A DNA stretch of 64,000 nt, from assembly GCA_027623315.1 (NCBI GenBank), contig JAQBYD010000006.1:27209-91208 (forward strand), given 5' to 3'. Shown piece by piece: positions 48,748 through 64,000 of this stretch. Both the position numbers and the translations under genes were made by a program. The notes beneath the pieces are model-generated. The model was not told the DNA's origin, made no database searches, and saw only the letters and a list, made by a program, of their open reading frames with translations. Position 1 is the stretch's first letter, and each line of letters starts with the position of its first letter. Source of the DNA: Verrucomicrobiota bacterium (lineage in GTDB: Bacteria > Verrucomicrobiota > Kiritimatiellia > CAJWTS01).

Positions 48748-49868
48748 CGGGCTTCGTTTGCCAGTTCTGAGAAGAGCACGGCGTGTCGCTGCAGCCACTC
48801 TCGCACGTCAAAGAGCTCCATAGCGCGTGCGCGTGCGCGGGTCGAGTATCCCTCATAGTCCTCCATGATATTGCGCATCGCGTGTGCGAGAAGAATCGGG
48901 TCCGGAGGGGTGTCCACCGCAAAGTCGATGATTCCGGGGACGGCGAGCCCTGCGTCACGTCCGACCAGTTCGGGGACCCCACCGGTATCCGAATAGACCA
49001 CCGGCAGGCCGCACGACATGGCTTCTACCACAAGTCGCGGAGATGGGTCGTTGACCTTCGTGTGCAGGAGTAGATGGGAGTTCGACAGGACGGAGGCCGC
49101 GGCTTGTTGGGTATAGGGACCGATGATGGTGATATGGCCCTCCAGTTCAAGGTCGTTGATCATGGCGTCCAATTCACCGCGCGCCACGGACTCATCGCGG
49201 TGCCAGCACAGGCGCCCCGCGATCGTGAGGTGGATCTTTCCCCGGCCACGCAGGATGGATCGCGTGGCCTGCAGGGCACAGTCGAGGCGATAGCGACTCC
49301 AAAAACTTCCGGCGCACAGGACGCGCAGGCCGTCCGAGAGAGGTGGCCGGTCATCTGAGGGGAGGAAACGATCGGTGGGGACCGGATTGTGCCAGATCTG
49401 CCAGCCACAGGTCGGCGTGCAGAGGAACTCCTCGGCGGACAGTTTGCAGAATTCACTCTGGTATACCACGTGATCCGCGAGTTGAAGGAGTTCGCGCATC
49501 GGCGCGTTGGCTTCGTGCCAGCCTTTCCCGTACCAGCCCGGGTAGTGCACGCCGTTTTGGTTAATCACGATCTTCGCGCCCGCCTCCTTGGCCCAGGTCG
49601 CCATGCGCACCGGAAAGTAGGGCAGGGCACTGCTAACCAGGTAGAGGATATTTGCGCCGCATGGCGTGTTGGGAAACCGTTCGGCGAGATCCTGAAGTTT
49701 GATCAAGCCTCCGCCCGCAATCTCATCCACACCCGGAATCGTATCGTGTCCATAGAAGATATGGGGTTGACCGTCTCGCTGGATTTGCGACCAGCGCCGG
49801 CGTTCGCCGGCATGCGTCGTCAGTTTGATCCGGACAAGGTTGAGGCGGTCGAGCAACGTCTGTTTCAT
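48744..49868 (-). CDS. Family 4 glycosyltransferase
   Basis: 374 aa. C-terminal LLHTKVNDPSPRLVVEAMSCGLPVVYSDTGGVPELV (GT4 EX7E region). Confidence 0.8.
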   Translation of the reverse strand: MKQTLLDRLNLVRIKLTTHAGERRRWSQIQRDGQPHIFYGHDTIPGVDEIAGGGLIKLQDLAERFPNTPCGANILYLVSSALPYFPVRMATWAKEAGAKIVINQNGVHYPGWYGKGWHEANAPMRELLQLADHVVYQSEFCKLSAEEFLCTPTCGWQIWHNPVPTDRFLPSDDRPPLSDGLRVLCAGSFWSRYRLDCALQATRSILRGRGKIHLTIAGRLCWHRDESVARGELDAMINDLELEGHITIIGPYTQQAAASVLSNSHLLLHTKVNDPSPRLVVEAMSCGLPVVYSDTGGVPELVGRDAGLAVPGIIDFAVDTPPDPILLAHAMRNIMEDYEGYSTRARARAMELFDVREWLQRHAVLFSELANEAR

Positions 49869-51583
49869 GTCGATTCCTCCAGTAGACGACGGGCAAGATC
49901 AACGTACTGCATGGTGACTTCCTGAAAAGTTCGAACGTAGATCATCCGTCGGTAGACGCCGACCCGGTCGGCCATACGGTCGAGTTGGCCGAGTATATCC
50001 GATTCGTCGGTAAAGGGAAGCCCGGCGAACCCGACCAGCGTCGCATTGCCGCCTGTGTCACGGTAGAGCGCGGGGCAACCGCATGCCATGGCTTCCAGGA
50101 GTGCGTTGGAACAGGGCTCGTTCATGCTGGCCGATATGAAGATGTCGTGTTGTCGAAGCAGGGCCGCGAGACGTCGTGACGACACGGCGGGGACGTGCCG
50201 GATATTCTCGAACGTCTCCTGGGTCCGTCCGACAAAGGTGTAGTCGAAGCGATCCCAGTCCAGGTGTTGATCGAGCCACTTCAGCAGGGGTCCGCCCTTC
50301 AAGGGGTTTGGGGACCACGCAGAGGTAATCAGACGAATCTTGTCTCCGGTCCGTGTGGGCTTTCGTCCGTTCTGGTTGAAAATCACGTTGTCGACGCCGT
50401 TGATCAGAATCACCGGTCGAACGGCATCATATCCGATCTCGTGATGTTTCTGCATGCAGTACGGTGACTGGTAGACGGTGGCGTCGGCGTACTTCTGGTT
50501 GAAAGCGTGGATTTTGTGGTCTGCTTCGAAGTCGGCGTCGCGGTAGAACGCAACCGGGCCATCCACGCGATGGATCAGCTTGGGCTGGTGCTTGTCCAAT
50601 AGTTTTTCGAGCCGATCCGCGTTGAAGTTCGCCGAGTTGCAGATCACGACCGAGGACGGCCCGGCGAGGCGATTCGTGAGCACGCGCGCACCGAGGCGGG
50701 TCAGTTCTTTTCGTAGTGCGTTCATGAACTGATTCCCGCCGCCCCACGGAGGTCGATGGAACTCGTGCCATAGTGAGAACGTGAGCCCGAATCCCGGGCG
50801 ATGGGCAACCAGGGCGCGGCGCGCGCGATTCACGAACTGCCCGAGCGCTGCGGGGGACGCCCCGGCACGGGTGGCCGGCGCGCGTCGCGCTTGAACGGGC
50901 GGTACTCGGTCGAGTTCGGACAGCAATTTGCGCAGCGGACCGATCGCTGCACTTGGCGTGTGGAGCTCGCGGATGCGGGCCAGGTGCGCTGCGCAGGTTT
51001 GCGCCAGGTCGCCCGGACGCTCACAGAATGCATGAAGCTTTGCGAGGCCGTCTTCGAAACTGTCGAAGAAGCAGGTCTCATCGAGGATGTCGAGTGCGGC
51101 GCCGACGCGCGTGCAGAGGATTGGCGTCTGCGTCGCTGCGGATTCGAGCGCCGAGCGCGGTCCGCCCTCCCACCGACTGCTAATCAGGTGCAGGTCGGAG
51201 GCGTGGTAGAGCAAGTTCATCGTCTTGGCAGCGAGTACATTAAGCGGCATGTCATCATGCGTAGTCTCTTCGCCGACGAAAGTGAACGGGACGCCGCGGT
51301 CGCGCAGGCGTTCGCGAATCCAGTGCCTGCGAGGTCCCGCGAGCAGAACGTGGATCGGGTGCCCGGCCTCGAAGCACGCGGCGAGGAGTTCAAGCAGAAG
51401 CTCCGTGGCTTTCTGTTCCTTGGGGCGAGAGAGATCCGATCCCAGAGTGTCTCGCATGAAGTTACTGATAACGATTCGGTTCGGTGGAATGTCAAAGCGC
51501 TCACACAGCGCTTCGCGAGTCAATCCGTCCGGCGGTTGCGCGGTGAAGTGAGTCGGGTCAACGCAATAGTAGATGCGAAGCAT
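49865..51583 (-). CDS. Two-module glycosyltransferase (tandem GT-B/GT4-like halves)
   Basis: 572 aa. The first half ends with a GT4-like C-terminal region ([38 protein letters not shown]). The second half holds another one ([32 protein letters not shown]). Confidence 0.65.
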
Positions 51584-51589
51584 CGGCTT

Positions 51590-51802
51590 GCCCAGGTCGC
51601 TCAGGATCCTCGCCGCCTCGTCAAGCTGGGCAAGCAGTCACGCCCCAAAATAAAACTGGGCATCTGCGGCGAACACGGTGGCGACCCCAAGTCCGTGGAG
51701 TTCTGCCACCACGTCGGTCTGAACTACGTGTCCTGCAGCCCCTACCGCGTGCCGATCGCACGACTCGCCGCTGCGCACGCCGCGCTGAAGAGCACGAAAT
51801 AG
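51590..51802 (+). pseudogene. ppdK: 3'-terminal remnant (~65-70 codons) of pyruvate phosphate dikinase gene
   Basis: The + frame reads ...[62 protein letters not shown]. This matches the conserved PPDK C-terminus ([19 protein letters not shown].[24 protein letters not shown]). Everything upstream in this frame is antisense to the GT gene. The 5' boundary is approximate. Confidence 0.7.
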
Positions 51803-51823
51803 CCCCAGTCCCACAGGATTGCA

Positions 51824-51860
51824 AAAGCGCACGAGGTATACGCGCCTCGTGCGCTTTTTT
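51824..51860 (+). terminator. Rho-independent terminator downstream of the ppdK remnant
   Basis: aaaGCGCACGAGG-tatacgcg-CCTCGTGCGC followed by TTTTTT, 22 nt after the TAG stop. A perfect 10-bp GC-rich stem. Confidence 0.75.
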
Positions 51861-52256
51861 GTGTGCCGGTCCAAGCCCCTGCTGACCGTCGCGTGGGGTT
51901 GACTCGCAAACTTTTGTCTGCAATGGATGATCTGCGCCGAAAACTTCGTGCGATCACAGGTCGTTGCGTCACGATCTTGCGCTGCAGACCGCGGTTGATC
52001 GCGACCGGGATTTGAGCAGCGGCTGGTCAAAGCAGAATGCAAGCGTACCAAACCCGTCTGTTTTTCCCACAACCACAAAGCCCGAACAAGGCCATTTCAA
52101 TCCACTGAAGCTGTAGCACATATCCACGCATCGCGCTTAATGTGCGGCACTGCAGCGCTATAAAGCGATGAGTAGGCCCACGGTGCTGTCCGTCATGAGG
52201 ATAGGTAGAGCGTGGTCCGCTTTTCTTTTGGAGGAAAATGGTAACTACTCAGGTAG

Positions 52257-52271
52257 GCAGGGTTCAGGGTT
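52257..52271. repeat. Left arm of 15-bp perfect inverted repeat (cagggttcagggttc)
   Basis: Tandem heptamer agggttc x2. The exact reverse complement occurs at 52671-52685. Confidence 0.8.
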
Positions 52272-52283
52272 CGGGAGGAAGAG

Positions 52284-52676
52284 ATGGAAACGTATCGACG
52301 CTTAGAAGACTGGGTCGTCGATCAGAAACTTTGTCGTCTGCCCATTGAGATAGGCGCACTTACCCACCGGTGGCCAGCGGAGGAGAAGTACGATGATCGG
52401 CACGTTCGCAACACGATCGAGGGAGTCAACAGAAGCCGGGGAGAGGCGGCGGAGACTGTGCATCACCTGTACATGGCCCACCTCAAAGGATATGAAACTC
52501 AGACGACGCACGAGGAGTATCGCGTTCGATATCAGGAGTGCATCCGGATGCTCAACGATATGGAACGTACTCTTGAAAAGCAATTGCCGGAGTCCGAGCG
52601 TCGCTGGCCCAATGTGTCCGTGCGGGAAGATGGCGAAACCTATGGAGCCTCCGCTTTTGGATTTCCTGAACCCTGA
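52284..52676 (+). CDS. Small hypothetical protein (130 aa) bracketed by the inverted repeats
   Basis: ATG 52284 preceded by GGGAGGAAGAG, a strong SD. Charged helical protein METYRRLEDWVVDQKL... The stop codon TGA lies inside the right IR. Confidence 0.5.
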   Translation: METYRRLEDWVVDQKLCRLPIEIGALTHRWPAEEKYDDRHVRNTIEGVNRSRGEAAETVHHLYMAHLKGYETQTTHEEYRVRYQECIRMLNDMERTLEKQLPESERRWPNVSVREDGETYGASAFGFPEP

Positions 52677-52685
52677 ACCCTGAGT
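52671..52685. repeat. Right arm of 15-bp perfect inverted repeat (gaaccctgaaccctg)
   Basis: Reverse complement of 52257-52271. The two arms are 399 bp apart. Confidence 0.8.
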
Positions 52686-53013
52686 AGTTGCGGAAAATGT
52701 ATGCAAACGACATACCCGTGGCCGGCCAACAGACTCGCTCAGTTATTTAAAACCATTGCCCAAAATGAAAGTCTCAACGCAATCAACCTGATGAACAAGG
52801 GCAACGTAAACCTGATCCTGAATCGACCCAGCGGCACGGCAGCCTGTATTGCCAAAGTCAAAATGCGTTCGGAGGCTATATGGCGCAGTCTTCCGATTAT
52901 CATTACCGGGCCCGCGGCGCGAGCCGCTATTGATGCCAGTGGCTTTGTCCGGAAAAACGACGGGGTGTTTCCCGCATCCGGGAATACCTTGTTAGTCCTT
53001 AAAGGGTTCGGAC

Positions 53014-54195
53014 TTGTTCTTGCGGTCATGCATCGCAGGCACTATTTTAGACTCCGTGAATATCCTGACCGCATATGCATGGTTTAAGCCCACGGGCATG
53101 GGTTCACGCATGCACCGTACTATGGAGCTGCTGGCCGAGTACGGTCATGACGTGGATTGGGTCGGCGTGTCCCCGCCTCCGATAAAAAGCCGTCAACTGC
53201 ACTTCCACCGTTTGTTTGAATGGCATGACAGCCCCAATCACCGGAAGCTCTATTTCTGGTTCAGGTACCATGCCGCCGCGATCAATGCCTGCAACCGGCT
53301 CTCCCGATCGAAACCCTATGCCGGCTTTGTATCTTTTACGGTAAGCGCGGCCTTTCCTCTAATCCGTGCAGTCAAACGGTCTGACAAGCCGTTCATTGTA
53401 TTCATCCGGTCGAATGAGATGGTCGAAAACAGGATAAAAGGGGTGACGGCTCCTCTCCAGTGGCTGGTAAACAAAGCTTCGAAAAAGGTTATTGAAGCCG
53501 CCTCCACGCTTGTATTCGTGAATCAGACCCTGCTTGATCGCTACTGTGAAGCCTATGGACCCCACATACGAAAGCGGTCTTTGGTCCTGTACAATGATCT
53601 GCCTGAAGTTCCGTTAGCCGCGTCTTCCCACACATCTATACCGGAGGTTAAAAAGGCACCCCTTGCTGTCGTCTGCGGACGGCTTGATAAAAATAAAAAT
53701 ATCGCCCTGGTGCTGCGCGCTATGACGGGCGATATCGCCAATGCATGGCACCTGCTGATTGTTGGAGACGGACCTGAGCGCAGCGGACTGGAGGAGTTGG
53801 TTCAGTCATTGAACTTAGCGGAAAGGGTCAAGTTTGCGGGATGGAGCAATGATGCCCCTGGCCTGACGGCACAGGCTGACTGCTTTATTCTGCCTTCGTA
53901 CAGCGAGGGTGTTTCCAATGCGCTTCTGGAAGCGCTGGCATGCAAAAAACCCTGTCTCGTCAGTGACATCCCCGAACACCGGGAGCTTTTCCCTGACGGA
54001 GAGAACCTGTTCAATCCAGATCAACCCGAAACACTTTCCCGCATGCTGGCCGCCCTTTTTAGCGACGACCCATTGGCGGATCGAATCAGAGCCGCATGTC
54101 GGGAGGCTGAACTGTTATTCCCGACCGACTGGGATTCGGAAGCCTATCGCATTATTACCACGGCGATGAATTGCACTGAGAGTCATGGGATATGA
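53014..54195 (+). CDS. Family 4 glycosyltransferase
   Basis: The track start 53014 is TTG. Alternative starts are GTG 53056 or ATG 53098. The start is uncertain. C-terminal FILPSYSEGVSNALLEALACKKPCLVSDIPEHRELF (EX7E region). Confidence 0.7.
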   Translation: MFLRSCIAGTILDSVNILTAYAWFKPTGMGSRMHRTMELLAEYGHDVDWVGVSPPPIKSRQLHFHRLFEWHDSPNHRKLYFWFRYHAAAINACNRLSRSKPYAGFVSFTVSAAFPLIRAVKRSDKPFIVFIRSNEMVENRIKGVTAPLQWLVNKASKKVIEAASTLVFVNQTLLDRYCEAYGPHIRKRSLVLYNDLPEVPLAASSHTSIPEVKKAPLAVVCGRLDKNKNIALVLRAMTGDIANAWHLLIVGDGPERSGLEELVQSLNLAERVKFAGWSNDAPGLTAQADCFILPSYSEGVSNALLEALACKKPCLVSDIPEHRELFPDGENLFNPDQPETLSRMLAALFSDDPLADRIRAACREAELLFPTDWDSEAYRIITTAMNCTESHGI

Positions 54196-55343
54196 AGATT
54201 CTATATTTTCATACAGGCCGGGTAGAGGCGCGGCAGGCCAATCTTACTCAAACGCTACAGATGGTTACCGCGTTCACGGAACTGGGCCACGCAGTGACAT
54301 TAGCGTTGAACACATCGCGCTGCACCCAGGCAGAGGGTGAACAGATAGTGAAGGAGCAGCTCAATCTCACCGAACTGCCATTTCTGATCAAAATCTACAA
54401 AGGGCGGTCTCTATGTGGGCGGTTTCGATCTCTGGGCGCCGCGGATGCAGCCCTCAAGCTAAGCCAAGAGACCCGCTATGATTTCATTTTTGTTCGAAAC
54501 CCGCTTCCCTTGCCCCTTTTAAAGAAGGCCGCCTGCCCGGTGATATTTGAGGCGCACCATACAGACTGCTTCGATAAGCTCCCGTTTTTTGATTGGTGGT
54601 GGCGCCGTCGAATCGTCGCCCTGGCGTGCTCGGATCAAATGCCCGTTATGATTGCCATATCGCAGGCCCTTGCAAATTGGTGGACCGCGGCGGGTGTGCC
54701 GTCCAGTAAAGTGCTGGCGCTGCATGATGCCGTCAATCCGACCTTTATCCCGGCCGGTCTGGATCAGATGTCGGCCCGCAAAGAACTCGAACTTGCCGCT
54801 GAGCGACCTGTTGTGCTTTACGCCGGCAGTTTATATGCCGATCGGGGGGCTGACACAATTCTGCGTCTTGCGGATATGCGCAGGGATGCCTTGTTTGTTG
54901 TGGTGGGTGGACCTGAGGAAACAGCGAAAGCGTTAGCGGCGAAAGCGGAAAAGACACAAATTGAGAATATCCGTTTTGAGGGGCGTGTTCCTCATTACCG
55001 TATCGCGCACTATCTTGCGGCCGCCGATATTCTGCTCATGGTCTGGTCATGGAAGGTCAAAACCATTCATTACTGCAGCCCATTGAAATTATTCGAATAT
55101 ATGCTGGCTGAGCGTGAGATAGTCGGGCAGGCATTCCCGACTATTCTGGAGGTCATAGAGGACGGTGTGCATGCGCGACTTGCGGATCCGGACTCCTTCG
55201 AGGATTTAGTGGATAAGCTGAGCGGAGCGCTAGACCATCCGAATCCGGAATTAGCCCGGGCGGCACGCGTGCTGGTAATTCGGGAATATACCTGGCAAAA
55301 CCGTTGCAGGCAGATTATTGAAGCGTTTGAAGGACCCCTATGA
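54192..55343 (+). CDS. Family 4 glycosyltransferase
   Basis: 383 aa. MKILYFH... N-terminus, C-terminal GT-B region. ATGA overlap with the previous GT4. Confidence 0.8.
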   Translation: MKILYFHTGRVEARQANLTQTLQMVTAFTELGHAVTLALNTSRCTQAEGEQIVKEQLNLTELPFLIKIYKGRSLCGRFRSLGAADAALKLSQETRYDFIFVRNPLPLPLLKKAACPVIFEAHHTDCFDKLPFFDWWWRRRIVALACSDQMPVMIAISQALANWWTAAGVPSSKVLALHDAVNPTFIPAGLDQMSARKELELAAERPVVLYAGSLYADRGADTILRLADMRRDALFVVVGGPEETAKALAAKAEKTQIENIRFEGRVPHYRIAHYLAAADILLMVWSWKVKTIHYCSPLKLFEYMLAEREIVGQAFPTILEVIEDGVHARLADPDSFEDLVDKLSGALDHPNPELARAARVLVIREYTWQNRCRQIIEAFEGPL

Positions 55344-55345
55344 AA

Positions 55346-56245
55346 CTATGTCCCGGAATAGCCCAGTTTTCGATTCAGGGGGCCTGCTGTTCGCTCAAAG
55401 ACAGCTAAATCCTTTTCGGTCAGCCTGCTTTTCCATGTCTCTACATTTACGATTTTATCTTCACCGCTGAACCGCATCCTGTTTCCACCGATAAGGTGCC
55501 GCTCCCGGCCTCTTAAGTGCAGTATATCCTCTGTGTAGGGTTTTTCCAGAAAGTCTGCGAGTTCACGCATGGTACTTTCCGGGTCGCGGCAAAGATCTTC
55601 ATACCGCAGTGCTTTCAGGTTCATGGAAGGGCCGGATCTAAATATGGATCCCGCCATCCGGTTGTCGTGGAGCCATGTTTTGGCAGCACGCTCTGCCGGC
55701 ACCTCTTTACGCATGGCGGAGGCCATGACGGCGCGCCCATCCCGAATTAGATGAATCACCCGTGCATTGCGCGGGAGCCGGGTCCTCAACCATTGCGCTG
55801 TCATAATGGACTTCGATGAATCGACAACGGCCTCGGCGGGTGCCGTTTTCAGGACGGCATCATAGAGCCGGATCATATTTTTGAGGATTGCATCGCTGCC
55901 AAATCCGGCGCAGCCCTGTGGGTGAATGACCGCGGAAGCCAGCCGGGCATAAAAGCTGAGCTTCTGGAGTTGGTTGTTTCGCTCGGCTTCGAGGGAGAGG
56001 CGGAAGGCATTTATGGTTTGATCGGCCGCTGTATCCCCCGCCAGCCCCAGTTCGTCTAAAATGGGATTCCAGAAGGGGCATGTTTGCGGTGGTTTCCCGC
56101 AGGTGCAGTGTTCATGCGTTTTGAGGAACAGAGGCAGCCATTTCACTTCACCCAGCGAGACGGTGCCGGACATGTTTCCTATAAGCAAATCCAGAAGCGT
56201 GGATCCACTGTGCCCCGAACTGAAAATGTATATGTATCGAACCAT
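55346..56245 (-). CDS. Sulfotransferase (Sulfotransfer_3-like, P-loop 5'-PSB)
   Basis: ATG at 56245 gives MVRYIYIFSSGHSGSTLLDLLIGN, a PAPS 5'-phosphosulfate-binding loop. The track start at 56296 is GTG. 3'-PB-like RDGRAVMAS. Converges with the upstream GT4 (3-nt gap). Confidence 0.65.
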   Translation of the reverse strand: MVRYIYIFSSGHSGSTLLDLLIGNMSGTVSLGEVKWLPLFLKTHEHCTCGKPPQTCPFWNPILDELGLAGDTAADQTINAFRLSLEAERNNQLQKLSFYARLASAVIHPQGCAGFGSDAILKNMIRLYDAVLKTAPAEAVVDSSKSIMTAQWLRTRLPRNARVIHLIRDGRAVMASAMRKEVPAERAAKTWLHDNRMAGSIFRSGPSMNLKALRYEDLCRDPESTMRELADFLEKPYTEDILHLRGRERHLIGGNRMRFSGEDKIVNVETWKSRLTEKDLAVFERTAGPLNRKLGYSGT

Positions 56246-56317
56246 GTTCGCGTCAGTTCGAAATAGTAATGAAGTGCGTGGTCTGCTGCGGATCACTTCT
56301 TTCGAATAGCCTTTGCA

Positions 56318-58099
56318 TCATTCCGCATCAGTATCTGGTGAAGCCGGGCCGCTTTGCGCCAGCCTAAAGAAATAACCCTGTTGGGCCATAAGTTCATCAT
56401 AGGTCCCCTGCTCCACAACTTTCCCTGCATCAAAGACGAGAATCCGGTCGGCCTTGCGAACGGTTGTCAAACGATGCGCGATTACGATCGTGGTGACCTT
56501 GCCTTTAAGTTCTACGATGGCTTCCTGGATCTTTTTTTCAGAGGTCATATCCAAAGCACTGGTCGCTTCATCCAGTATAAGGATCTCGGGTTCTACCACG
56601 AGCGCCCTGGCCAGCGCAATGCGTTGACGTTCTCCCCCCGACAGACCGGCGCCATGTTCGCCCAGTACGGTTTCATATCCTTCCGGAAGGCGCTGAATAA
56701 ACGCATCCGCATGCGCCAAACGGCAGGCCTTTTGAATACGCTCCATGCTCAGGCCTTCGCTGCGGAAGTCCACATTCCGGGCGATGGAATCGTTGAGAAT
56801 GAAAGGGTCCTGCGATACGTAACCCATCTTTTTACGATAGCTGGTCATACTGAGGGTGGCCAGTTGATCGTTCCCGACCCTTATCTCGCCGCTGTTCGGC
56901 CGCAGAAGCCCCACGAGTAAATCCGCGGTTGTCGATTTTCCGGCTCCCGATCCGCCGACCAAACCGATCATGGCACCGGATGGAATATCGAAATTCAATG
57001 GGCCAATGCAATGCTCCTGCCCTCCCGATGCGTAGCGGTAAGTGACTTCCTGAAAGGAAATTCCATCGCCCACACTTTCAAAAGTGCGTCCTGCATTCTC
57101 GTCGGGATATTGATTGGATTTTAATTCGCTGATGTTTTCTTCAAAGACATCCAGAGCCGCCATGTGTCTGAGAATTTTGTAGTGCATGTTCTGAATCGTT
57201 CTCAGGGACTGATACATTCTGGCTGCCGCGACGATAAAGGCAAAAAAGATTGTGAGGTTGAAATCGAAAATGAGGTAGATCATCAGCGCCAGGACTATCA
57301 CCATTGGCTCAAAGATCGAATTGAGTGAACCTTCGGCTACAGCCAGCTTCAATTCGGTTCGACTATACCTGGACAGGGTCTTGTCCATGTGCCGCCCGAT
57401 GCCGTCTTCGCAGACGAAGCTTTTCATGACGCGGTAACCGCTGAGGCTATGATTTACGGTTTCCTGAATTTCAGCCTGGCAGGCCGCGACAGTATGCCCC
57501 CAGCGCCGTGCTGAGAGGAAAACCGATCGGATCAGGAAATAAATGACCGCAGAGAAGGCCAGTACAAAAAGAGAAAGTTCCCAGGATATCAGCACGACCA
57601 CAATAACCGAAAACAGGACATCCACGGCGGAGGTGGCATAGCGTGAGACGAAGTTCAGCAACCGGGAAATCATACGCGTTTGCGTCACGACGACATCCGT
57701 AAGTTTCCCGAAATTCCGGCTGTACAGAAAAGGAAGTTCCGCATGCAGCAGCGCATCCAGTGCGATGCGTTTCTTGTGACATTCCAGGCCTACCTCGACT
57801 GATTTCATCAGGGCATTCTGAAGCACCAACATGGCGGATCGTGCTGCGACAATGAAGAAGGTAACGATCAGGATGTTTTGAAAGGTAGGTTCAAGCCCAA
57901 TTCCGTTGAACAACCCGATGAACAGCCGCCCGAACAAGCTGTCCGGATTAGGGGCCTCGTCCATGAGTGCGGTCATCAGCGGGATAATGGCCGCAATACT
58001 CGCCCCGCCTAAAAAGCCGGTAAAAAGCAACAACAGAAAAATAATTGACAGCCTTAATCGGTAATATTTTAACCCGAGGCGAATTACATTGGCTATCAT
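56318..58099 (-). CDS. ABC transporter, fused permease/ATP-binding protein (type I exporter, MsbA/PglK-like)
   Basis: 593 aa. Six N-terminal TM helices, Walker A GGSGAGKST, signature LSGGERQRIALARAL, Walker B ILILDEATSALD, H-loop IAHRL. Confidence 0.85.
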   Translation of the reverse strand: MIANVIRLGLKYYRLRLSIIFLLLLFTGFLGGASIAAIIPLMTALMDEAPNPDSLFGRLFIGLFNGIGLEPTFQNILIVTFFIVAARSAMLVLQNALMKSVEVGLECHKKRIALDALLHAELPFLYSRNFGKLTDVVVTQTRMISRLLNFVSRYATSAVDVLFSVIVVVLISWELSLFVLAFSAVIYFLIRSVFLSARRWGHTVAACQAEIQETVNHSLSGYRVMKSFVCEDGIGRHMDKTLSRYSRTELKLAVAEGSLNSIFEPMVIVLALMIYLIFDFNLTIFFAFIVAAARMYQSLRTIQNMHYKILRHMAALDVFEENISELKSNQYPDENAGRTFESVGDGISFQEVTYRYASGGQEHCIGPLNFDIPSGAMIGLVGGSGAGKSTTADLLVGLLRPNSGEIRVGNDQLATLSMTSYRKKMGYVSQDPFILNDSIARNVDFRSEGLSMERIQKACRLAHADAFIQRLPEGYETVLGEHGAGLSGGERQRIALARALVVEPEILILDEATSALDMTSEKKIQEAIVELKGKVTTIVIAHRLTTVRKADRILVFDAGKVVEQGTYDELMAQQGYFFRLAQSGPASPDTDAE

Positions 58100-58180
58100 A
58101 TGAGTTATCTTTAACTGATGTTTACGGTCACTTGTCGTACGATCAAGCGGATGCGAAATGGCGGACTGTTTGAAAAAAAG

Positions 58181-59473
58181 TTAAAGGAGGTCTTCGGGCT
58201 TTCGTCCAGCTTTTAATATAATCTCAAGTGAGGCTAAAAAAATAAGTTGATTGGACAAATCAGCATGATTGTTCTGGTGTGTATTCCATATTTCATCCAA
58301 GTCCAACCAGTTGACAATGTTTCGTTTTTTCAAATCATTCAAATTCTCTCTCATTGAATCTCTGAGATCTTTCCTGCTTTGTATGGAGGTTTTGAAATCC
58401 AGATAGTTCAGCATCCTATTTCGAACAGCATTCGGCCTTTTTGACGGAAATTTTTTACGCAATATGTTGCCGGCATGTGCGCAGGCATAAGGCAGTTTGC
58501 CTGTCTTTAGTCCCAGGCCATAATGAGATTTAAGCGGGATGCGGCTCATTTCCGGAAAATATTCCAGAATCATACCTTTATACAGACTGCAATTTTTGCG
58601 ATGCACCCTGGGCAGGTTAGTGAAAAATGCCAGCACCTCGGGGTCTGAAAATGGCGTTTCAAAGCATAGTCCTTTATGTAGAACACTCGGCGCTATCAAC
58701 TTCGCCTGTCGGTTTGAAAAATCCCAGCATTCTTCAATTGAGAAAGTGGTACCTGTTGCATTATCCGGATAGTCGAGAAGTGAGACATACTGCTTATGCG
58801 CTAGTACGTCTAGGCGCAGATTGCTTGTTTTACGTCCCTCTTTTTCGAGAAAACGGTAAGCCGCCAGCGGCTTTGTTGGTGCTGGTGAATGAGGCATGCG
58901 TGACCCGGCGAGATAGTCACCAAGGAAACCAGACCAGACCCGAGTGTTACCATAGCGTTCAACAAGTTTTGTTACCGGAGCTCCATGATATACCTCTGTC
59001 TGTAAATCGAAAGCTTTGGCTTTTAGAACAAGAGACTCCGTATCGTAAGGGCATTCATGTAGCGATAACGGATTGTGTTCCACCCCGTAAAACCTAGCGA
59101 CCTGGGCGCCAATTTCAAAATCAAAAGATCCCGGAAGCCCATACGTGAAGGTTGTGACCTTCGCGGCGGGCACCTGCTCCATTAAAAGAGCAAGAATAAG
59201 CCTACTGTCTAATCCACCACTCAGCGGAACCGCCTGGATCTTATCGGTGTCCAGTCGTTTGTCGATGGAGTTGCGTATAAGATGAATAGCCGTCTGCTTG
59301 AGTTCCTGCGTCGTCGCATGCTGTATATCTGACCTTGGTCCATAAAAAGTTCTGAGCGCAGGCGGGCTGCAGTAATTCAGAAAATAGCCAAGCCGAAGGT
59401 AGGCGTTCAGGGAAAGACTGTTTTTGAAATCATCGGCCTGAACCGCTGGACTACCCCCATCCCATGTATTCAT
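58181..59473 (-). CDS. Asparagine synthetase-like amidotransferase (AsnB C-terminal synthetase domain only, no glutaminase domain)
   Basis: 430 aa. PP-loop SGGLDSRLILALL as in AsnB/WbpS-type enzymes. No N-terminal Cys glutaminase domain. Confidence 0.65.
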   Translation of the reverse strand: MNTWDGGSPAVQADDFKNSLSLNAYLRLGYFLNYCSPPALRTFYGPRSDIQHATTQELKQTAIHLIRNSIDKRLDTDKIQAVPLSGGLDSRLILALLMEQVPAAKVTTFTYGLPGSFDFEIGAQVARFYGVEHNPLSLHECPYDTESLVLKAKAFDLQTEVYHGAPVTKLVERYGNTRVWSGFLGDYLAGSRMPHSPAPTKPLAAYRFLEKEGRKTSNLRLDVLAHKQYVSLLDYPDNATGTTFSIEECWDFSNRQAKLIAPSVLHKGLCFETPFSDPEVLAFFTNLPRVHRKNCSLYKGMILEYFPEMSRIPLKSHYGLGLKTGKLPYACAHAGNILRKKFPSKRPNAVRNRMLNYLDFKTSIQSRKDLRDSMRENLNDLKKRNIVNWLDLDEIWNTHQNNHADLSNQLIFLASLEIILKAGRKPEDLL

Positions 59474-60492
59474 GGTGATACGGCCCCAGCATCTACAGTA
59501 CTTTCAATAAAGGTCTGCATTAAGCCGATATAATGTTCCCGATATTCTTCAAACGTATCCGGACGAACAAGGTGAGGACGTGTCCTATTCTCCGTGGGGT
59601 CCATTTCATTTGCGATAGATTTCCAAACATGTGTAAGAAAGTGCTTTCCATCATACGAGTTATCGGTGTCATAGGTCAACGCCCCTGGGGCTGAAAAATC
59701 GTAAAACTCATCCGCAATAATTGAAAGACGCCTTGCCACATGAAAAAATGATTCTTCGTTTTTGTAGTAATCCTTATATACTTCCCATGGACTTACGGGT
59801 GGAGCATAAAGAATGTAGTGTGCGTTGGGGAAAACTGAATGTAGCTCGTCATAGAGTTCCACCCATTCAATTTGATATTTTTGAGGACTAATTTTTCTGC
59901 GAAATGCTGGGCGATAAGGTTTGAGCCCGGGGATAGGCTGGCAGGCAAAGTTTTGGTCATAATATCGTTGTCCGGTTCTCGATGGAAATTGTCTGCGGAG
60001 GGTCTGTCGAGACCATTGAACAACATCCCAACTCATATAATTAGCCCATTTAGAGGGTGGTCGTTTGAACTCGTCAACCCAGTCGGGTACCTCACGCTGC
60101 GGGTCGCCATAAAAATTAAACATGGATGCTTCGACGAGAAGGACCTTGGGCTCATATCCTTTACTCTTTAAGTAGCGCGCATACGCTATAAACTCCCTGA
60201 TTCGTCCTGCACTGAATGACAAATTAAACGAATCACCACCACAGAAATCACGCTGATCAAGTAAAGTCGTTCTGGAGCTCCCAAGGATCAGGCAGGCAGG
60301 ATCGGATTTCCGGCGTTCGAAAAGATAAATTTTTGTTAGTCTCTCGTTAAAAGCAATATTGGTGTCAAAGAGCTTATTGCCGCCAAAGGCCCACAGCGGA
60401 TCCACCACCAGGTTAAACCCCACCACGGCGCCCAATCCAATGACTAGCAGTCCACATAGAACACAGGCATATACTTTGAAAGAATTACACAT
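59470..60492 (-). CDS. Membrane-anchored hypothetical protein, possible DltD/AlgJ-like O-acyltransferase partner of the MBOAT
   Basis: 340 aa. N-terminal anchor MCNSFKVYACVLCGLLVIGLGAVVGF. CLILGSSRT resembles the DltD GSS block. 1-nt gap, in line with the MBOAT gene. Assigned mainly from context. Confidence 0.4.
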   Translation of the reverse strand: MCNSFKVYACVLCGLLVIGLGAVVGFNLVVDPLWAFGGNKLFDTNIAFNERLTKIYLFERRKSDPACLILGSSRTTLLDQRDFCGGDSFNLSFSAGRIREFIAYARYLKSKGYEPKVLLVEASMFNFYGDPQREVPDWVDEFKRPPSKWANYMSWDVVQWSRQTLRRQFPSRTGQRYYDQNFACQPIPGLKPYRPAFRRKISPQKYQIEWVELYDELHSVFPNAHYILYAPPVSPWEVYKDYYKNEESFFHVARRLSIIADEFYDFSAPGALTYDTDNSYDGKHFLTHVWKSIANEMDPTENRTRPHLVRPDTFEEYREHYIGLMQTFIESTVDAGAVSP

Positions 60493-62042
60493 TAGAAATT
60501 GAAGTAGATAAATTCACTGACACGGTTTAATCGTACGAGACAATATAATAAAATAACAGCTATGAAGCAGGCCCATACAGGGCTCGGGGCCCATTGGAAC
60601 CAGCGGGGGCGTCCCGCTTCAACCTTGTATCCTGCCGTGTGCATATAGGGTCGGCAGCTTCGAAAAAGCTGCATCGAATTCGGAGCAAGAAAACAAAGGA
60701 GGAAGGCGCACAGGATTAACCGGATATCCCCGGATACCCGCACTTTACGTATTTGAGCCCATTCAGCGCCGGATAGCCATTCGGACAGCGCGGGACTTCC
60801 CGCGATCCATTCCTTCGGGATAATCATTCCGTTGGATCCAATCATGCCGTTCAGCACAGCCAGCGCTCCATCCAGCGATTCTGCCCGAAACAAAACCCAG
60901 CTGATAACCACGGCCAGAAAGGTTATCGACTGGGCCAAAATTTTCCATGCCGCATTGGTATCGGATAACAGGCCCCACTTAGGTTTGAGATGGTGCCAGC
61001 CATGGTTGATGCAAATATACAATCCATGCAGCCCCCCCCAAATGACAAAAGTCCACCCGGCTCCGTGCCATAATCCACCCAGCAGCATGGTGATCATCAG
61101 GTTTCTGTAGCGGAACAGTCGCCCTTTTCGGCTGCCGCCGAGCGGAAAATACAGGTACTCCCTCAAAAACCGTGACAAGGTCATATGCCACCGGCGCCAG
61201 AATTCGACAATGCTCCTGGACTTGTACGGGGAGTTGAAGTTGACCGGCAAGCGGATGCCGAAACATCGCCCCAATCCTATCGCCATATCGGAGTATCCGG
61301 AGAAATCAAAATAGAGTTGAAAGGTATAGCCGAGTGCACCCATCCACCCGGAAAGAAAATCTATGGGCCGTCCCAGTTCGGCACTCTGAAAGACTGGATT
61401 CGCAATGAGTGCCAGATTGTCGGCAAGAATAGATTTTTTGAAAAGGCCCAAGGCAAAAATGCTTAACCCCACGATAAGGTTTCGAAGGATCTGCTTTTTC
61501 CGGGGAGCCATACGTTCAAACTGGGGAAGCATTTCCCTGTGATGAACGATCGGGCCTGCAATTAACTGGGGGAAAAAGGAGACGAAAAGGCAGTAATGGA
61601 TGAAGTTGTATTCTTTGGTCTCGTGGCGGTAGGAGTCCACCAGATAGGTGATCTGTTGAAATGTGAAAAAGGAGATGCCAAGAGGCAGTAGAATGTCCGG
61701 GACACGCCATCCGCCATTCAGTAACGCATTGGTGTTTTCAATGAAAAAACCGGCGTACTTGTAGTAGCCGATGGTAAGGAGATTGACCCCAATCCCCAGG
61801 GCAAGCATCCGACGCGTTCGCCACTTTTCTTTCAGCATCAATCGTCCCATGCCGTAGTTGAACAGCATGGAAACGGCGATCAATATGAGATATTGAGGGT
61901 TCCACCAGGCATAAAAAAACAGGGATGCGACAGCAAGCCATGCATAACGCAGTTCCCTGTTATTAAACTGTTGAAGGCAAAGGTACACCGCGAGGGTAAT
62001 CGGAAAAAACCAGAAGATGAATTCAAAGGTGTTAAAAAGCAT
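60492..62042 (-). CDS. MBOAT-family membrane-bound O-acyltransferase (AlgI/DltB/PatA-like)
   Basis: 516 aa, polytopic. Conserved WRRWHMTLSRFLREYLYFPLGGSR and catalytic His region LGGLWHGAGWTFVIWGGLHG. Confidence 0.85.
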   Translation of the reverse strand: MLFNTFEFIFWFFPITLAVYLCLQQFNNRELRYAWLAVASLFFYAWWNPQYLILIAVSMLFNYGMGRLMLKEKWRTRRMLALGIGVNLLTIGYYKYAGFFIENTNALLNGGWRVPDILLPLGISFFTFQQITYLVDSYRHETKEYNFIHYCLFVSFFPQLIAGPIVHHREMLPQFERMAPRKKQILRNLIVGLSIFALGLFKKSILADNLALIANPVFQSAELGRPIDFLSGWMGALGYTFQLYFDFSGYSDMAIGLGRCFGIRLPVNFNSPYKSRSIVEFWRRWHMTLSRFLREYLYFPLGGSRKGRLFRYRNLMITMLLGGLWHGAGWTFVIWGGLHGLYICINHGWHHLKPKWGLLSDTNAAWKILAQSITFLAVVISWVLFRAESLDGALAVLNGMIGSNGMIIPKEWIAGSPALSEWLSGAEWAQIRKVRVSGDIRLILCAFLLCFLAPNSMQLFRSCRPYMHTAGYKVEAGRPRWFQWAPSPVWACFIAVILLYCLVRLNRVSEFIYFNF

Positions 62043-62065
62043 ATCACCGGCGACCCAATTGGAAA

Positions 62066-62815
62066 TTAATGTTTATCTTTAAATTGAATGAACGCCGCCG
62101 CGTATCTCTTTCCCAGTTCCTGCGCGGACGAATAGTCGAAATGCCAACGATCATAGGCCGTGAGCCCGTCGGAGGTAACAAAGGCGGTCCCTGGCGCTTT
62201 CTCAGTCAAATTCGCGAGTCTCCGGTTAAACTCTGGCGCATTGTGTATGCCCCCGGCAATGAAGGGGACTTCCATTTCGAGTGTGCTCCGAAATTCATAT
62301 ATAAGGCTGCAGAGTTGATCCAAGTATTCTCTATCTTCTATATTGCGCTCACCCTGATGCCAGAGAATGGCCTCGAGGTGCCCCTCATTTTGTTCAAGGG
62401 CACTGCGAATGCGGCGAATTGCCTCACTAAAATAGGGCTGCCCTTTCCGCCACTCTGTAATACTAGATCCCCCTCGTGCATTGATAACCAACCCGACCTG
62501 AATTCCCGGCTTGTACTCAAGAAGATGTTTTCCAAAAGCTTCACAGAAATTATACCGCTGAAGACCAAGACTTTTACGGATTGTCGAGTATCGGTTGTAA
62601 GGTTGCCGAGCGGTTTCCCATTTATTTTCAGCATTAAAAAGCAATATATCAGAGACTTCTCCTGATGCCTCGGGAATCGGACTCCGCCCAGCCATATTAC
62701 TTTGCCCGATACAGAGAAAAACCCATAATGCAGGCTTTTTTTGATCTTTTTCCTTCTTTATCTGAAAGACTTTACTGCACATAAAGCTTAATATAAGCCC
62801 AAGCATAAGCAGCAT
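62066..62815 (-). CDS. SASA/DUF303-type carbohydrate esterase (sialate-O-acetylesterase-like SGNH hydrolase)
   Basis: Block I CIGQSNMAGRSP, central GG, C-terminal DxxH-like (DRWHFD). The track start is 62905. I prefer ATG 62815 (MLLMLGLILSFMC, a signal), which removes the 77-nt overlap with the upstream gene. Start uncertain. Confidence 0.6.
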   Translation of the reverse strand: MLLMLGLILSFMCSKVFQIKKEKDQKKPALWVFLCIGQSNMAGRSPIPEASGEVSDILLFNAENKWETARQPYNRYSTIRKSLGLQRYNFCEAFGKHLLEYKPGIQVGLVINARGGSSITEWRKGQPYFSEAIRRIRSALEQNEGHLEAILWHQGERNIEDREYLDQLCSLIYEFRSTLEMEVPFIAGGIHNAPEFNRRLANLTEKAPGTAFVTSDGLTAYDRWHFDYSSAQELGKRYAAAFIQFKDKH

Positions 62816-62828
62816 GCCGAGCACTTTT

Positions 62829-64000
62829 TTACAACTCAACTGCTTCCATAAGAAAGGCATCGCAACCAACCTCGTTGAACTGCATAGGAGGCAGTTCGGG
62901 TTCAATAGCCCTGAGAAGTTCTACTTTTTCAGAAAGTTCCTTTTCGTGAAGGCATTCAAATTTATAGCGGGCAATCGATTGACCCCTGAAGAGAGCTCCT
63001 CCAAACTTACTTTTCCGTAAACGACCTAAGCCATTTCGGTAATTTCTTAAGAGTTCTTCTTTAGGCGTTGACGGAAAAGTTTTCACCTCAGGGGCGCATC
63101 CTGCGTAATGATTAGAGATAAGTTCGACAATTGAGCTGGTGGAAGATCCGTCAAGTTTAGCAATGACAGGCTCCAGGAGCTTTTGACGTGCCGACCGCTG
63201 TTCGGAGCTAAGTTGATAAGATCCGTCCAGTGTGCTTTTCACCCAGTTGATCAAGTCTTTGTGGTTATCAAGCGTTTCACTTATTGCCCTCGGCAGCGGC
63301 TTGCTTAGCTCTGGATGGTAAATTGGCGCGTACATAGCAACTGGCAGGCCGTGAACAAACGCTTCGACTGCCGTTGTGCAGCCATGATGAATGACGGAGG
63401 CCGCATTGATCAGCCACATTTGCACCGGCCCCTCTCGCAGGACAAAGATATTTTCAACTTGCTTGAAGGTGTGTCTGTAGAAATCAAGATTTTCGGTAGG
63501 ATGAGGGCGAATAACAATAGAGCGTGGCGCTATGGCCTTGCTGAGTGCGTGGATGGCTTCAATAAAGAAGCCGGATAAAAGGCCATGATAATGGCATAGC
63601 ATATCTTCATGGAGACTGTTGTAGGATTTTCCCTGCGCTTGATTGCGCAGGGCTTTAAGTTTTTCGGCACCGAGATAATGATGAGCACGCTGAAAGTTGG
63701 TGTTGATTAGAACGTACGGCTCATTTTTGAATCGACTGTCTTTCTGCTGTGCTTCGAAATACGAAGCAAACCTTTTAGCGCATAAATCAAATCTGGGGTT
63801 CCCAACTACATTAAATTTTTCTGGGTCATCAGATGCCTTTTCTCGGAGGAGTTCGGTTTTTTGCCATTCCCCCCATAGCAGTGTCATCAAGGAAAGACTG
63901 ACAGCGCTTGGAGGATTGCGTTGTACCAGAGCGGTGCTGTTTTCGACGTAAATTCCACCCTCCTCATCCATACGGATCAAATCACCGCCTCGTTCCTGCA
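62829..64000 (-). CDS. Putative capsule-polysaccharide biosynthesis glycosyltransferase (KpsS/KpsC-like family?), N-terminus probably beyond the window
   Basis: The frame stays open to the window edge. The track M at 63980 is TTG. Internal ATG at 63971. Motif IHHGCTTAVEAFVHGLPV. The family assignment is tentative. Confidence 0.45.
   Translation of the reverse strand, partial: QERGGDLIRMDEEGGIYVENSTALVQRNPPSAVSLSLMTLLWGEWQKTELLREKASDDPEKFNVVGNPRFDLCAKRFASYFEAQQKDSRFKNEPYVLINTNFQRAHHYLGAEKLKALRNQAQGKSYNSLHEDMLCHYHGLLSGFFIEAIHALSKAIAPRSIVIRPHPTENLDFYRHTFKQVENIFVLREGPVQMWLINAASVIHHGCTTAVEAFVHGLPVAMYAPIYHPELSKPLPRAISETLDNHKDLINWVKSTLDGSYQLSSEQRSARQKLLEPVIAKLDGSSTSSIVELISNHYAGCAPEVKTFPSTPKEELLRNYRNGLGRLRKSKFGGALFRGQSIARYKFECLHEKELSEKVELLRAIEPELPPMQFNEVGCDAFLMEAVEL

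Follow-up and report, generated by a model that had tools for sequence, protein, structure and literature searches.

The window analysed here, a stretch of 64 kb (64,000 nt) from contig JAQBYD010000006.1 of a Verrucomicrobiota bacterium, contains near 52 kb a small open reading frame (ORF) of 130 codons enclosed by tandem heptamers in inverted orientation. Heptamers and ORF belong to an element of 451 bp (52241-52691), situated between the remnant of a ppdK gene and a cluster of glycan genes. A repeat search of the window found the perfect 15-mer CAGGGTTCAGGGTTC at 52258-52272 and its complement at 52668-52682, within arms of 19 nt (52258-52276 / 52664-52682) that are 95% complementary. Tandem Repeats Finder (TRF) reported period-7 arrays at 52258-52272 (2.1 copies) and 52665-52683 (2.7 copies), the sole heptamer arrays in the 64 kb, and a 14-mer with up to two mismatches matched these two sites only (0.31 matches expected; two or more in 2 of 100 shuffles). 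The initial annotation had described perfect 15-bp inverted repeats bracketing the ORF; the repeats are indeed there, 1-3 nt from where it had placed them, and it had missed two features, an outer perfect inverted repeat of 11 nt, AACTACTCAGG (52243-52253 / 52679-52689), and a perfect 8-bp direct repeat, GGAAAATG, that adjoins both ends (52233-52240 and 52692-52699). It was right that the left repeat overlaps the Shine-Dalgarno region and the right one contains the stop codon: the degenerate last unit of the left array is the Shine-Dalgarno GGGAGG, 5 nt 5′ of the ATG, and the right array codes for the C-terminal FPEP and the stop codon TGA (52674-52676).

The ends of the element were examined by a strict scan, which accepted only pairs of ends complementary at 11 or more of 14 positions and adjoined on the outside by an exact 8-bp direct repeat. 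The scan picked out the window element, with the duplication GGAAAATG and the ends GTAACTACTCAGGT / GCAACTACTCAGGG, and it matched none of 438 non-partner pairs that served as control. The features of the locus, with the evidence for each, are as follows (the autonomous element L199, ISDge4 and the metagenomic loci are described below).

52233-52240, no strand: left target-site duplication GGAAAATG, overlapping the GGAGG Shine-Dalgarno at 52230-52234 (sequence and strict scan)
52241-52253, + strand: left terminal inverted repeat GTAACTACTCAGG, 13 nt, of ISBst12-group/IS66-family type (L199 end, ISDge4 ends and 40 metagenomic loci)
52258-52278, + strand: left heptamer array CAGGGTT CAGGGTT CGGGAGG (sequence, repeat search and TRF)
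52284-52676, + strand: 130-aa helix-bundle ORF, TIGR02436/PF05635 (profile matches and homologues)
52380-52391, + strand: junction of a 63-bp (21-aa) in-frame deletion (alignment; position ambiguous within repeated E-K-Y codons)
52663-52683, + strand: right heptamer array TTCCTGA ACCCTGA ACCCTGA, the reverse complement of the left array (sequence, repeat search and TRF)
52679-52691, - strand: right terminal inverted repeat, reverse complement GCAACTACTCAGG (sequence, repeat search and strict scan)
52692-52699, no strand: right target-site duplication GGAAAATG (sequence and strict scan)
52701-53087, + strand: downstream 128-aa ORF (gene call in public assemblies; no Pfam or NCBIfam match)

Transposon ends, an autonomous relative and deletion derivatives

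The 15-mer is one part of a longer inverted repeat with gaps, and the outermost 13 nt of this repeat are canonical ends of insertion sequences (ISs) of the ISBst12 group of the IS66 family, beginning with GTAA (GTAACTACTCAG...); the 8-bp duplication abuts them directly. A scan of viral contigs for GTAACTACTCAGGT recovered L199, an autonomous element of 1,833 bp whose ends are GTAACTACTCAGGTAGG / CCTACCTGAGTAGTTAC and whose 8-bp duplication, TCTTTTTG, is perfect. The only ORF in L199, of 535 aa, matches DDE_Tnp_IS66 (124 bits) and zf-IS66, and the left end of L199 is identical to that of the window element over 17 of 17 nt (GTAACTACTCAGGTAGG). The same scan yielded L216, a 678-bp derivative that keeps the N-terminus of the transposase, and L174, a MITE (miniature inverted-repeat transposable element) of 156 bp with window-type ends, both of them ordinary deletion derivatives of an ISBst12-group IS. 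ISDge4 of Deinococcus geothermalis (IS66 family, ISBst12 group), whose transposition has been caught experimentally, has the ends GTGACTACTCAGCA / GTAACTGCTCAGCA and an 8-bp direct repeat (PMC12898284), and the window ends are near-identical to these. The ISBst12-group ISs (ISDge4, L199) and their MITEs thus share with the window element both the GTAACTACTCAG... ends and the 8-bp duplication. The window element differs from them in having no transposase, which its autonomous relative encodes; its only ORF is the helix-bundle gene, and this gene and the heptamers make up an interior that the autonomous IS lacks.

A metagenome scan for AACTACTC-N(0-10)-AGGGTTCAGGGTTC gave 40 loci with window-type ends, many of them elements of 150-290 bp that also carry heptamers. 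Perfect 8-bp duplications were found at unrelated sites (L096/97, GCGACAGG; L105, CACCGTTC; L114/128, CATTGCCC; L121, ATAAAAAG), and the duplications of L108 and L127 match at 7 of 8 positions. The full form is represented by L101 (529 bp), with an intact gene of 151 aa. Short forms retain fragments of this gene (L104, aa 19-61; L121, aa 2-38; L127, aa 77-151; L120, aa 119-151), which identifies them as internal-deletion derivatives, and the window copy, with its 451 bp and its 63-bp deletion, is among these. In sibling MITEs, which share the IS66-type ends, the heptamers are different ones (GGCTGAA, GCCAGAA), and one of these MITEs has another helix-bundle-like ORF.

We are highly confident that the 451-bp element at 52241-52691 is a non-autonomous DNA transposon of the mobile insertion cassette (MIC) or MITE type, with ends of the ISBst12 group of the IS66 family and a helix-bundle gene with its heptamers as cargo. 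A miniature mobile element or cassette remnant had been among the interpretations offered by the initial annotation, and the IS66-type ends, the 8-bp duplication, the autonomous relative and the deletion derivatives bear it out. In MICs, IS ends flank a passenger other than a transposase and the cassette is mobilised in trans, as in MIC231 of Bacillus cereus. MITEs carrying ORFs have also been described (Delihas 2011, PMC3184786). The window element resembles both in its inverted ends, its target duplication, the absence of a transposase and a passenger ORF unrelated to transposases; its family differs from MICs in that the passenger is always one gene family with its own inverted heptamers, found in shells of different IS families.

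Other candidates for the source of mobility were considered and set aside. An ISL3 transposase was thought of first because sibling cassettes, described below, have ISL3-like ends (GGCTCTT...) and 8-bp duplications; the window ends read GTAACTACTC..., not GGCTCTT, and an IS66-family IS with identical ends was found. The helix-bundle protein itself was another candidate for the transposase, since no other product is encoded by the longest form with heptamers (529 bp); this idea was down-weighted once the autonomous IS66 partner turned up. L092, with two ends 2.6 kb apart, was rejected as an autonomous element, as it holds housekeeping genes and no transposase. Within the window, a one-mismatch match to the transposon-end core (AACTTCTCAGG) at 62910-62920 (- strand) has neither a partner nor heptamers and is probably due to chance.

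A damaged helix-bundle gene and the arrays that accompany its family

The ORF, which the initial annotation had left as a protein of unknown family, turned out to be a deleted gene for a four-helix-bundle protein. It matches TIGR02436 ('four helix bundle protein') at 30.2 bits, above the cut-off of 24, and PF05635 ('23S rRNA-intervening sequence protein') at 28.2 bits, below the gathering score of 33.8 because of the internal deletion. We found 1245 homologues, the best of them 75% identical and nearly all of about 151 aa; full-length homologues (62-75% identical) match the whole PF05635 profile at 77-86 bits. Their C-termini read ...GFPEP before the stop codon or have repeat-encoded extensions, e.g. 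PEPRTLNPEP. By alignment with the homologues, the residues lost in the window copy correspond to EKYELGSQARRSSNSAPAQLA, that is, helix 2, and six near-invariant positions are changed (L10W, Y13D, H20P, K44T, Y76H and G92D). An AlphaFold (AF2) model of the full-length homologue P0005 (pLDDT 74.5) has helices at 3-27, 32-53, 59-88 and 94-120 and a disordered tail, and the helix at P0005 residues 32-53 is the one that is gone from the window copy. Without helix 2 the window protein can hardly form a four-helix bundle; its gene belongs to the family, but the product is unlikely to fold like the other members. The protein is probably non-functional and the window copy probably a decaying relic. The family itself is under strong purifying selection, with a median ratio of nonsynonymous to synonymous substitution rates (dN/dS) of 0.093 over 64 unsaturated pairs. 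The best fold matches of the P0005 model were the S23-family structures 2GSC and 2RLD, with a weaker match to Avd (4DWL). Avd, which belongs to diversity-generating retroelements, XCC0516 (2GSC) and BT_0352 (2RLD) share the four-helix-bundle fold with the family, but their sequence identity is 15-24%, and the window has no nearby reverse transcriptase and no template or variable repeats.

To see how general the arrangement of gene and heptamers is, we used 77 distinct homologous loci with full flanks, out of 80 fetched. At least two tandem units (general form TCRGKKK) were present on both arms in 65 of the 77 (mode, four per arm), and in most loci the G-rich array lies upstream of the ATG and its reverse complement across or after the stop codon. 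The host genomes belong to Verrucomicrobiota, Kiritimatiellia, Lentisphaerae, Desulfobacterota, Planctomycetota and others. Over 590 kb of sequence, arrays within 200 nt of the gene numbered 197, compared with 74 in the remaining ~520 kb. The left arm fits its own right arm (mean complementarity score 38.4) better than the right arms of other loci (28.3) or shuffled ones (15.6), and the dominant unit is identical on both arms in 29 of 65 loci, where 10.2 were expected. The two arms have changed their unit in concert at one orthologous chromosomal site (GGTTCAG in L029, AGGTCAG in L038). The autonomous IS L199 and the MITE L174 have window-type ends and no heptamers; the example of the autonomous IS shows that the transposase ends can do without them. 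On this sequence pattern, the arrays are best read as a conserved attribute of the helix-bundle gene and not as recognition ends of a transposase.

Tandem heptanucleotides are known from other bacteria, such as GGGGAYT/STRR in cyanobacteria, GGGAATC in Xanthomonas (~70 convergent pairs per genome) and TAACTGA in Beggiatoa. Like the arrays described here, these are intergenic tandem 7-mers, often G-rich, often in convergent pairs and often just 5′ of starts; the papers on them differ in making no link to helix-bundle genes or transposon ends, whereas here the arrays are tied to one gene family. Some loci also hold convergent heptamer arrays without an ORF, which resemble the Xanthomonas 'convergent' pairs. 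These are hairpins 0.7-1 kb from the gene, usually past the next gene (L029, 5362-5543; L033, 5365-5459; L035, 5398-5495; L047, 320-507; L078, 2945-2996). In a minority of loci (L043, L059, L061 and L073) a C-rich array lies upstream and a G-rich one downstream, or both sides have direct arrays, and these may be neighbouring elements instead of arms that belong to the gene. Metagenome-assembled genomes (MAGs) of Kiritimatiellia have an intact gene with arrays (L001, 2900-3470; L002, 2900-3480) between a conserved promoter-like stretch (TTGACA...TA-rich) and the start of thiC, which lies 4-17 nt past the right array. Rfam gave no match on seven related loci, including these thiC-upstream copies, where a thiamine pyrophosphate (TPP) riboswitch was expected. 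An extra IS (DDE_Tnp_1) lies ~170 nt upstream in L003 and L005.

The gene with its arrays was also found in other transposon shells. In the MAG CAVUUJ01 an element of 663 bp is present at least seven times; its ends are ISL3-like (GGCTCTTTCGCGA...), it has 8-bp duplications (TTACATTC, TTTTTTCT), and its arrays lie 66 nt inside the ends. A copy on a Geminocystis plasmid has ISL3-like ends, GGCTCTTCTACAGT, and the duplication AATAAAAA, and one on a Nostoc flagelliforme plasmid has a third type of end and the duplication (C)CTGATGTT. ISL3 ends of the form GGCTCTTCG with 8-bp repeats are documented (PMC6305408, PMC11448079). The CAVUUJ01 cassette also occurs as head-to-tail tandem pairs whose second copy lacks the first 66 nt (L060, 3946-5139; L067; L054; L077, 1615-2566); this set includes an inverted copy 1.3 kb from a direct one, and the copies are at least 98.4% identical. 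Fourteen homologues on cyanobacterial plasmids (30-45% identity) mostly have G-rich tandem units of 7-8 nt upstream and their complement downstream, as judged by eye, which is weaker evidence; L143-L145 have weaker or one-sided arrays, L134 and L135 direct ones and L132 a degenerate one. The strict period-7 detector counted 8 arrays near these genes and 6 elsewhere; most cyanobacterial arrays escaped it, as they are built of alternating units of 7 and 8 nt. In the Pseudanabaena galeata plasmid pPg_01 (L135, 1387-1931) the helix-bundle gene lies between cas6 and cas4 with very long direct arrays, (AAAGCTA)x14 upstream and (AAAGCCA)x10 downstream, and more arrays of that unit are nearby. On several Nostocales plasmids the gene immediately adjoins a tyrosine recombinase/integrase gene (L147 and L148, 3466-4484; L145, 3545-4480; L144, 1685-2767), an arrangement kept between Tolypothrix PCC 7910 and Nostoc C057.

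Insertion of the element and readings of its heptamers

The surroundings of the element were largely as the initial annotation had placed them, after a ppdK scar and before a low-GC glycan module. The remnant codes for the C-terminus of PPDK (PF02896 positions 245-291 of 293, ~51641-51802, + strand), with the upstream part of the gene missing, and the GC content, ~0.61 before 52 kb, drops there to ~0.53 and is down to 0.43-0.50 past 58 kb. Glycosyltransferase genes are found on both sides and not downstream alone; an ORF of 572 aa on the opposite strand (49865-51583) codes for a glycosyltransferase. In the lower-GC block at 52000-64000 there are genes for GT1/GT4 glycosyltransferases, a sulfotransferase, an ABC exporter, an asparagine-synthase-like protein, an MBOAT acyltransferase and a SASA-type acetylesterase. 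The block has the look of an island for glycan modification that was acquired, and neither a transposase nor an integrase turned up in it. A terminator-like hairpin with a T-run (52207-52223, + strand) lies a few bases 5′ of the GGAGG and the insertion site, which places the element between a likely terminator and the start of the next gene. A sigma-70 promoter scan of the element region found no promoter, the hairpin at 52207-52223 being the only signal.

These features fit the following course of events. A DDE transposase of the IS66 family, which an autonomous relative provided in trans, would have inserted the element into intergenic DNA leading from the ppdK remnant to the lower-GC glycan gene cluster, at a point between the Shine-Dalgarno of the next ORF and its start codon, and the filling-in of an 8-bp staggered cut would have produced the GGAAAATG duplication. 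The GGAGG at 52230-52234 presumably served the downstream ORF before the insertion: removing the element and one copy of the duplication would restore GGAGG-N7-ATG in front of 52701-53087, and the insertion thus appears to have split that ribosome-binding site. The cargo would be a module of the PF05635/TIGR02436 gene, (GGGTTCA)n upstream of it and (TGAACCC)n across its stop codon. Most likely the heptamers either have a cis-acting role for the helix-bundle gene or the transcript of it, or serve as binding sites for the protein.

Several observations weigh against the transposon reading or restrict it. No metagenome match to the reconstructed empty junction (...CTTTTGGAGGAAAATGTATGCAAACG...) was found, and all three assemblies that hold the locus, located by exact-protein look-ups, have the filled site. 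Many copies exist elsewhere, in different metagenomic contexts, and the window itself has one; neither a second copy nor a transposase was found within its 64 kb, so that any activity in this genome would be putative. A duplication by the strict definition was present in only 2 of the 74 family loci taken from genomes, which implies that most copies are old or vertically inherited. The window ORF is still open, with a dN/dS of ~0.09 on the paths leading to it, so that the case for a dead copy rests on the deletion and the substitutions and not on stop codons.

As to the role of the heptamers, one alternative is that the inverted arrays mainly form a long-range RNA stem around the ORF, like that of 23S rRNA intervening sequences (IVSs). 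Cleavage by RNase III or sequestration of the ribosome-binding site would then excise or silence the message of the cassette and insulate host transcripts, and this could be a function that the heptamer module adds on top of transposition. The IVS of Coxiella burnetii has the same plan: it measures 428 nt, its terminal stem of 28 bp is a substrate of RNase III, and it holds an S23p ORF of PF05635 with two to three tandem heptamers just upstream of the ATG (PMC4990558). The window element shares with the IVSs of Coxiella burnetii and Leptospira that carry an S23p ORF a size of ~430-530 bp, terminal repeats able to form a stem around the PF05635 ORF, heptamers 5′ of its ATG and decay of the ORF, seen there in some strains. 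It differs from them in its target-site duplication and IS66 ends, and in lying outside an rRNA gene: instead of helix 25 or 45 of a 23S rRNA gene, its flanks are the ppdK remnant and glycosyltransferase genes, and Rfam found no family, rRNA included, in 51500-53500.

An mRNA stem had been suggested in the initial annotation, and it is physically possible: a stem of 13 + ~17 bp appears in both the minimum-free-energy (MFE) and the centroid fold (z = -2.99 for the whole fold), and both arms fall within the likely transcript, where the last unit on the left reaches over the Shine-Dalgarno and the stop codon lies under the right arm. The G-rich arm is upstream and the C-rich arm downstream in most loci, the order being reversed or the arrays direct in some (L043, L059, L061, L073 and the cyanobacterial L134/L135); direct arrays, as in L135 and L073, speak against a stem. 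The co-variation of the arms at orthologous sites, e.g. in L029 and L038, fits pairing but could equally reflect conversion of one arm by the other or a protein that binds both. Specific support for RNA was not found. Mismatches between the arms show no excess of sense-strand wobble pairs (G:U 18, A:C 32, other 46, against 1433 Watson-Crick pairs), RNAduplex energies are alike for sense and antisense (43 loci favour sense and 34 antisense; Wilcoxon p = 0.9), and Rfam had no match. As neither G:U pairs nor energies are asymmetric, we keep the RNA stem as a rival only, and as the main role of the arrays we consider it rather unlikely.

It is also possible, though we think it doubtful, that the helix-bundle protein and the arrays form a self-contained unit, in which the protein binds the tandem heptamers on DNA or RNA and either autoregulates or aids the movement or persistence of the module, making it more than passive cargo. 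Such a unit would account for the fact that the association of gene and arrays outlasts changes of heptamer sequence, phylum and outer transposon shell, and that siblings with the same IS66-type ends carry GGCTGAA or GCCAGAA and, in one case, another helix-bundle-like ORF. It would also suit the strong purifying selection on the protein (median dN/dS 0.093) and the retention of arrays in ORF-less derivatives with fresh duplications, but the arrays adjoin the ends in the window-type element and any deletion derivative would keep them anyway. The structures that best match the P0005 model, 2GSC and 2RLD, are toroidal pentamers, and Avd (4DWL) binds nucleic acid and reverse transcriptase. Binding of the heptamers by the protein is an appealing but hypothetical idea. 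Mobility can be explained without the protein, by a genuine IS66 transposase whose element has identical ends, and neither PADLOC defence models nor other functional searches gave a match.

An invertible DNA switch, in which a site-specific recombinase would flip the segment between the inverted repeats and so control the downstream glycan locus, had been put forward in the initial annotation. The inverted repeats do flank a segment of ~400 bp just upstream of a gene cluster. We regard a switch as extremely improbable: there is no recombinase or integrase gene in 48.7-64 kb (the initial annotation had itself noted the absence of a recombinase), the sigma-70 scan found no promoter-like site inside or near the segment, three independent assemblies have it in one orientation, and the repeats are transposon ends with a target-site duplication, shared with an IS of the IS66 family.

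Meaning of the family pattern

The feature in the window is an IS66-family MITE/MIC carrying a PF05635 gene, and as such of known kinds. As an ordinary decaying insertion it has little functional weight; at most it may have moved a ribosome-binding site away from one small ORF, on the margin of the glycan island. What appears to be new is that the gene family is systematically bracketed by inverted heptamer arrays, and that miniature transposons with 8-bp duplications, from two or more IS families, appear to carry this module. No paper linking gene family, heptamers and transposons was found in the searchable literature (subscription journals and ISfinder were outside its scope, and a prior description is possible); papers on heptamer repeats and on 23S_rRNA_IVP genes inside cas loci draw no connection between the two.

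Tentatively, and with considerable doubt, one may go further and view the PF05635/TIGR02436 gene with its inverted arrays as a distinct, widely transferred module. Its protein would recognise its own heptamers, and the module would ride in, or build, miniature transposons of different IS families and become a '23S rRNA intervening sequence' when in rDNA; its ORF-less remnants would be part of the convergent heptamer repeats of cyanobacteria, xanthomonads and others.

The suspicion that the IVSs of 23S rRNA are relics of transposons goes back to 1990-93, but neither target duplications nor a transposase had been identified for them; the family pattern gives a concrete hypothesis for their origin. 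It also explains why genes for a 'four helix bundle protein' are found between unrelated genes, e.g. inside cas operons, upstream of thiC or in a strain-specific manner. And it ties a conserved protein family of unassigned function to tandem heptanucleotide repeats.

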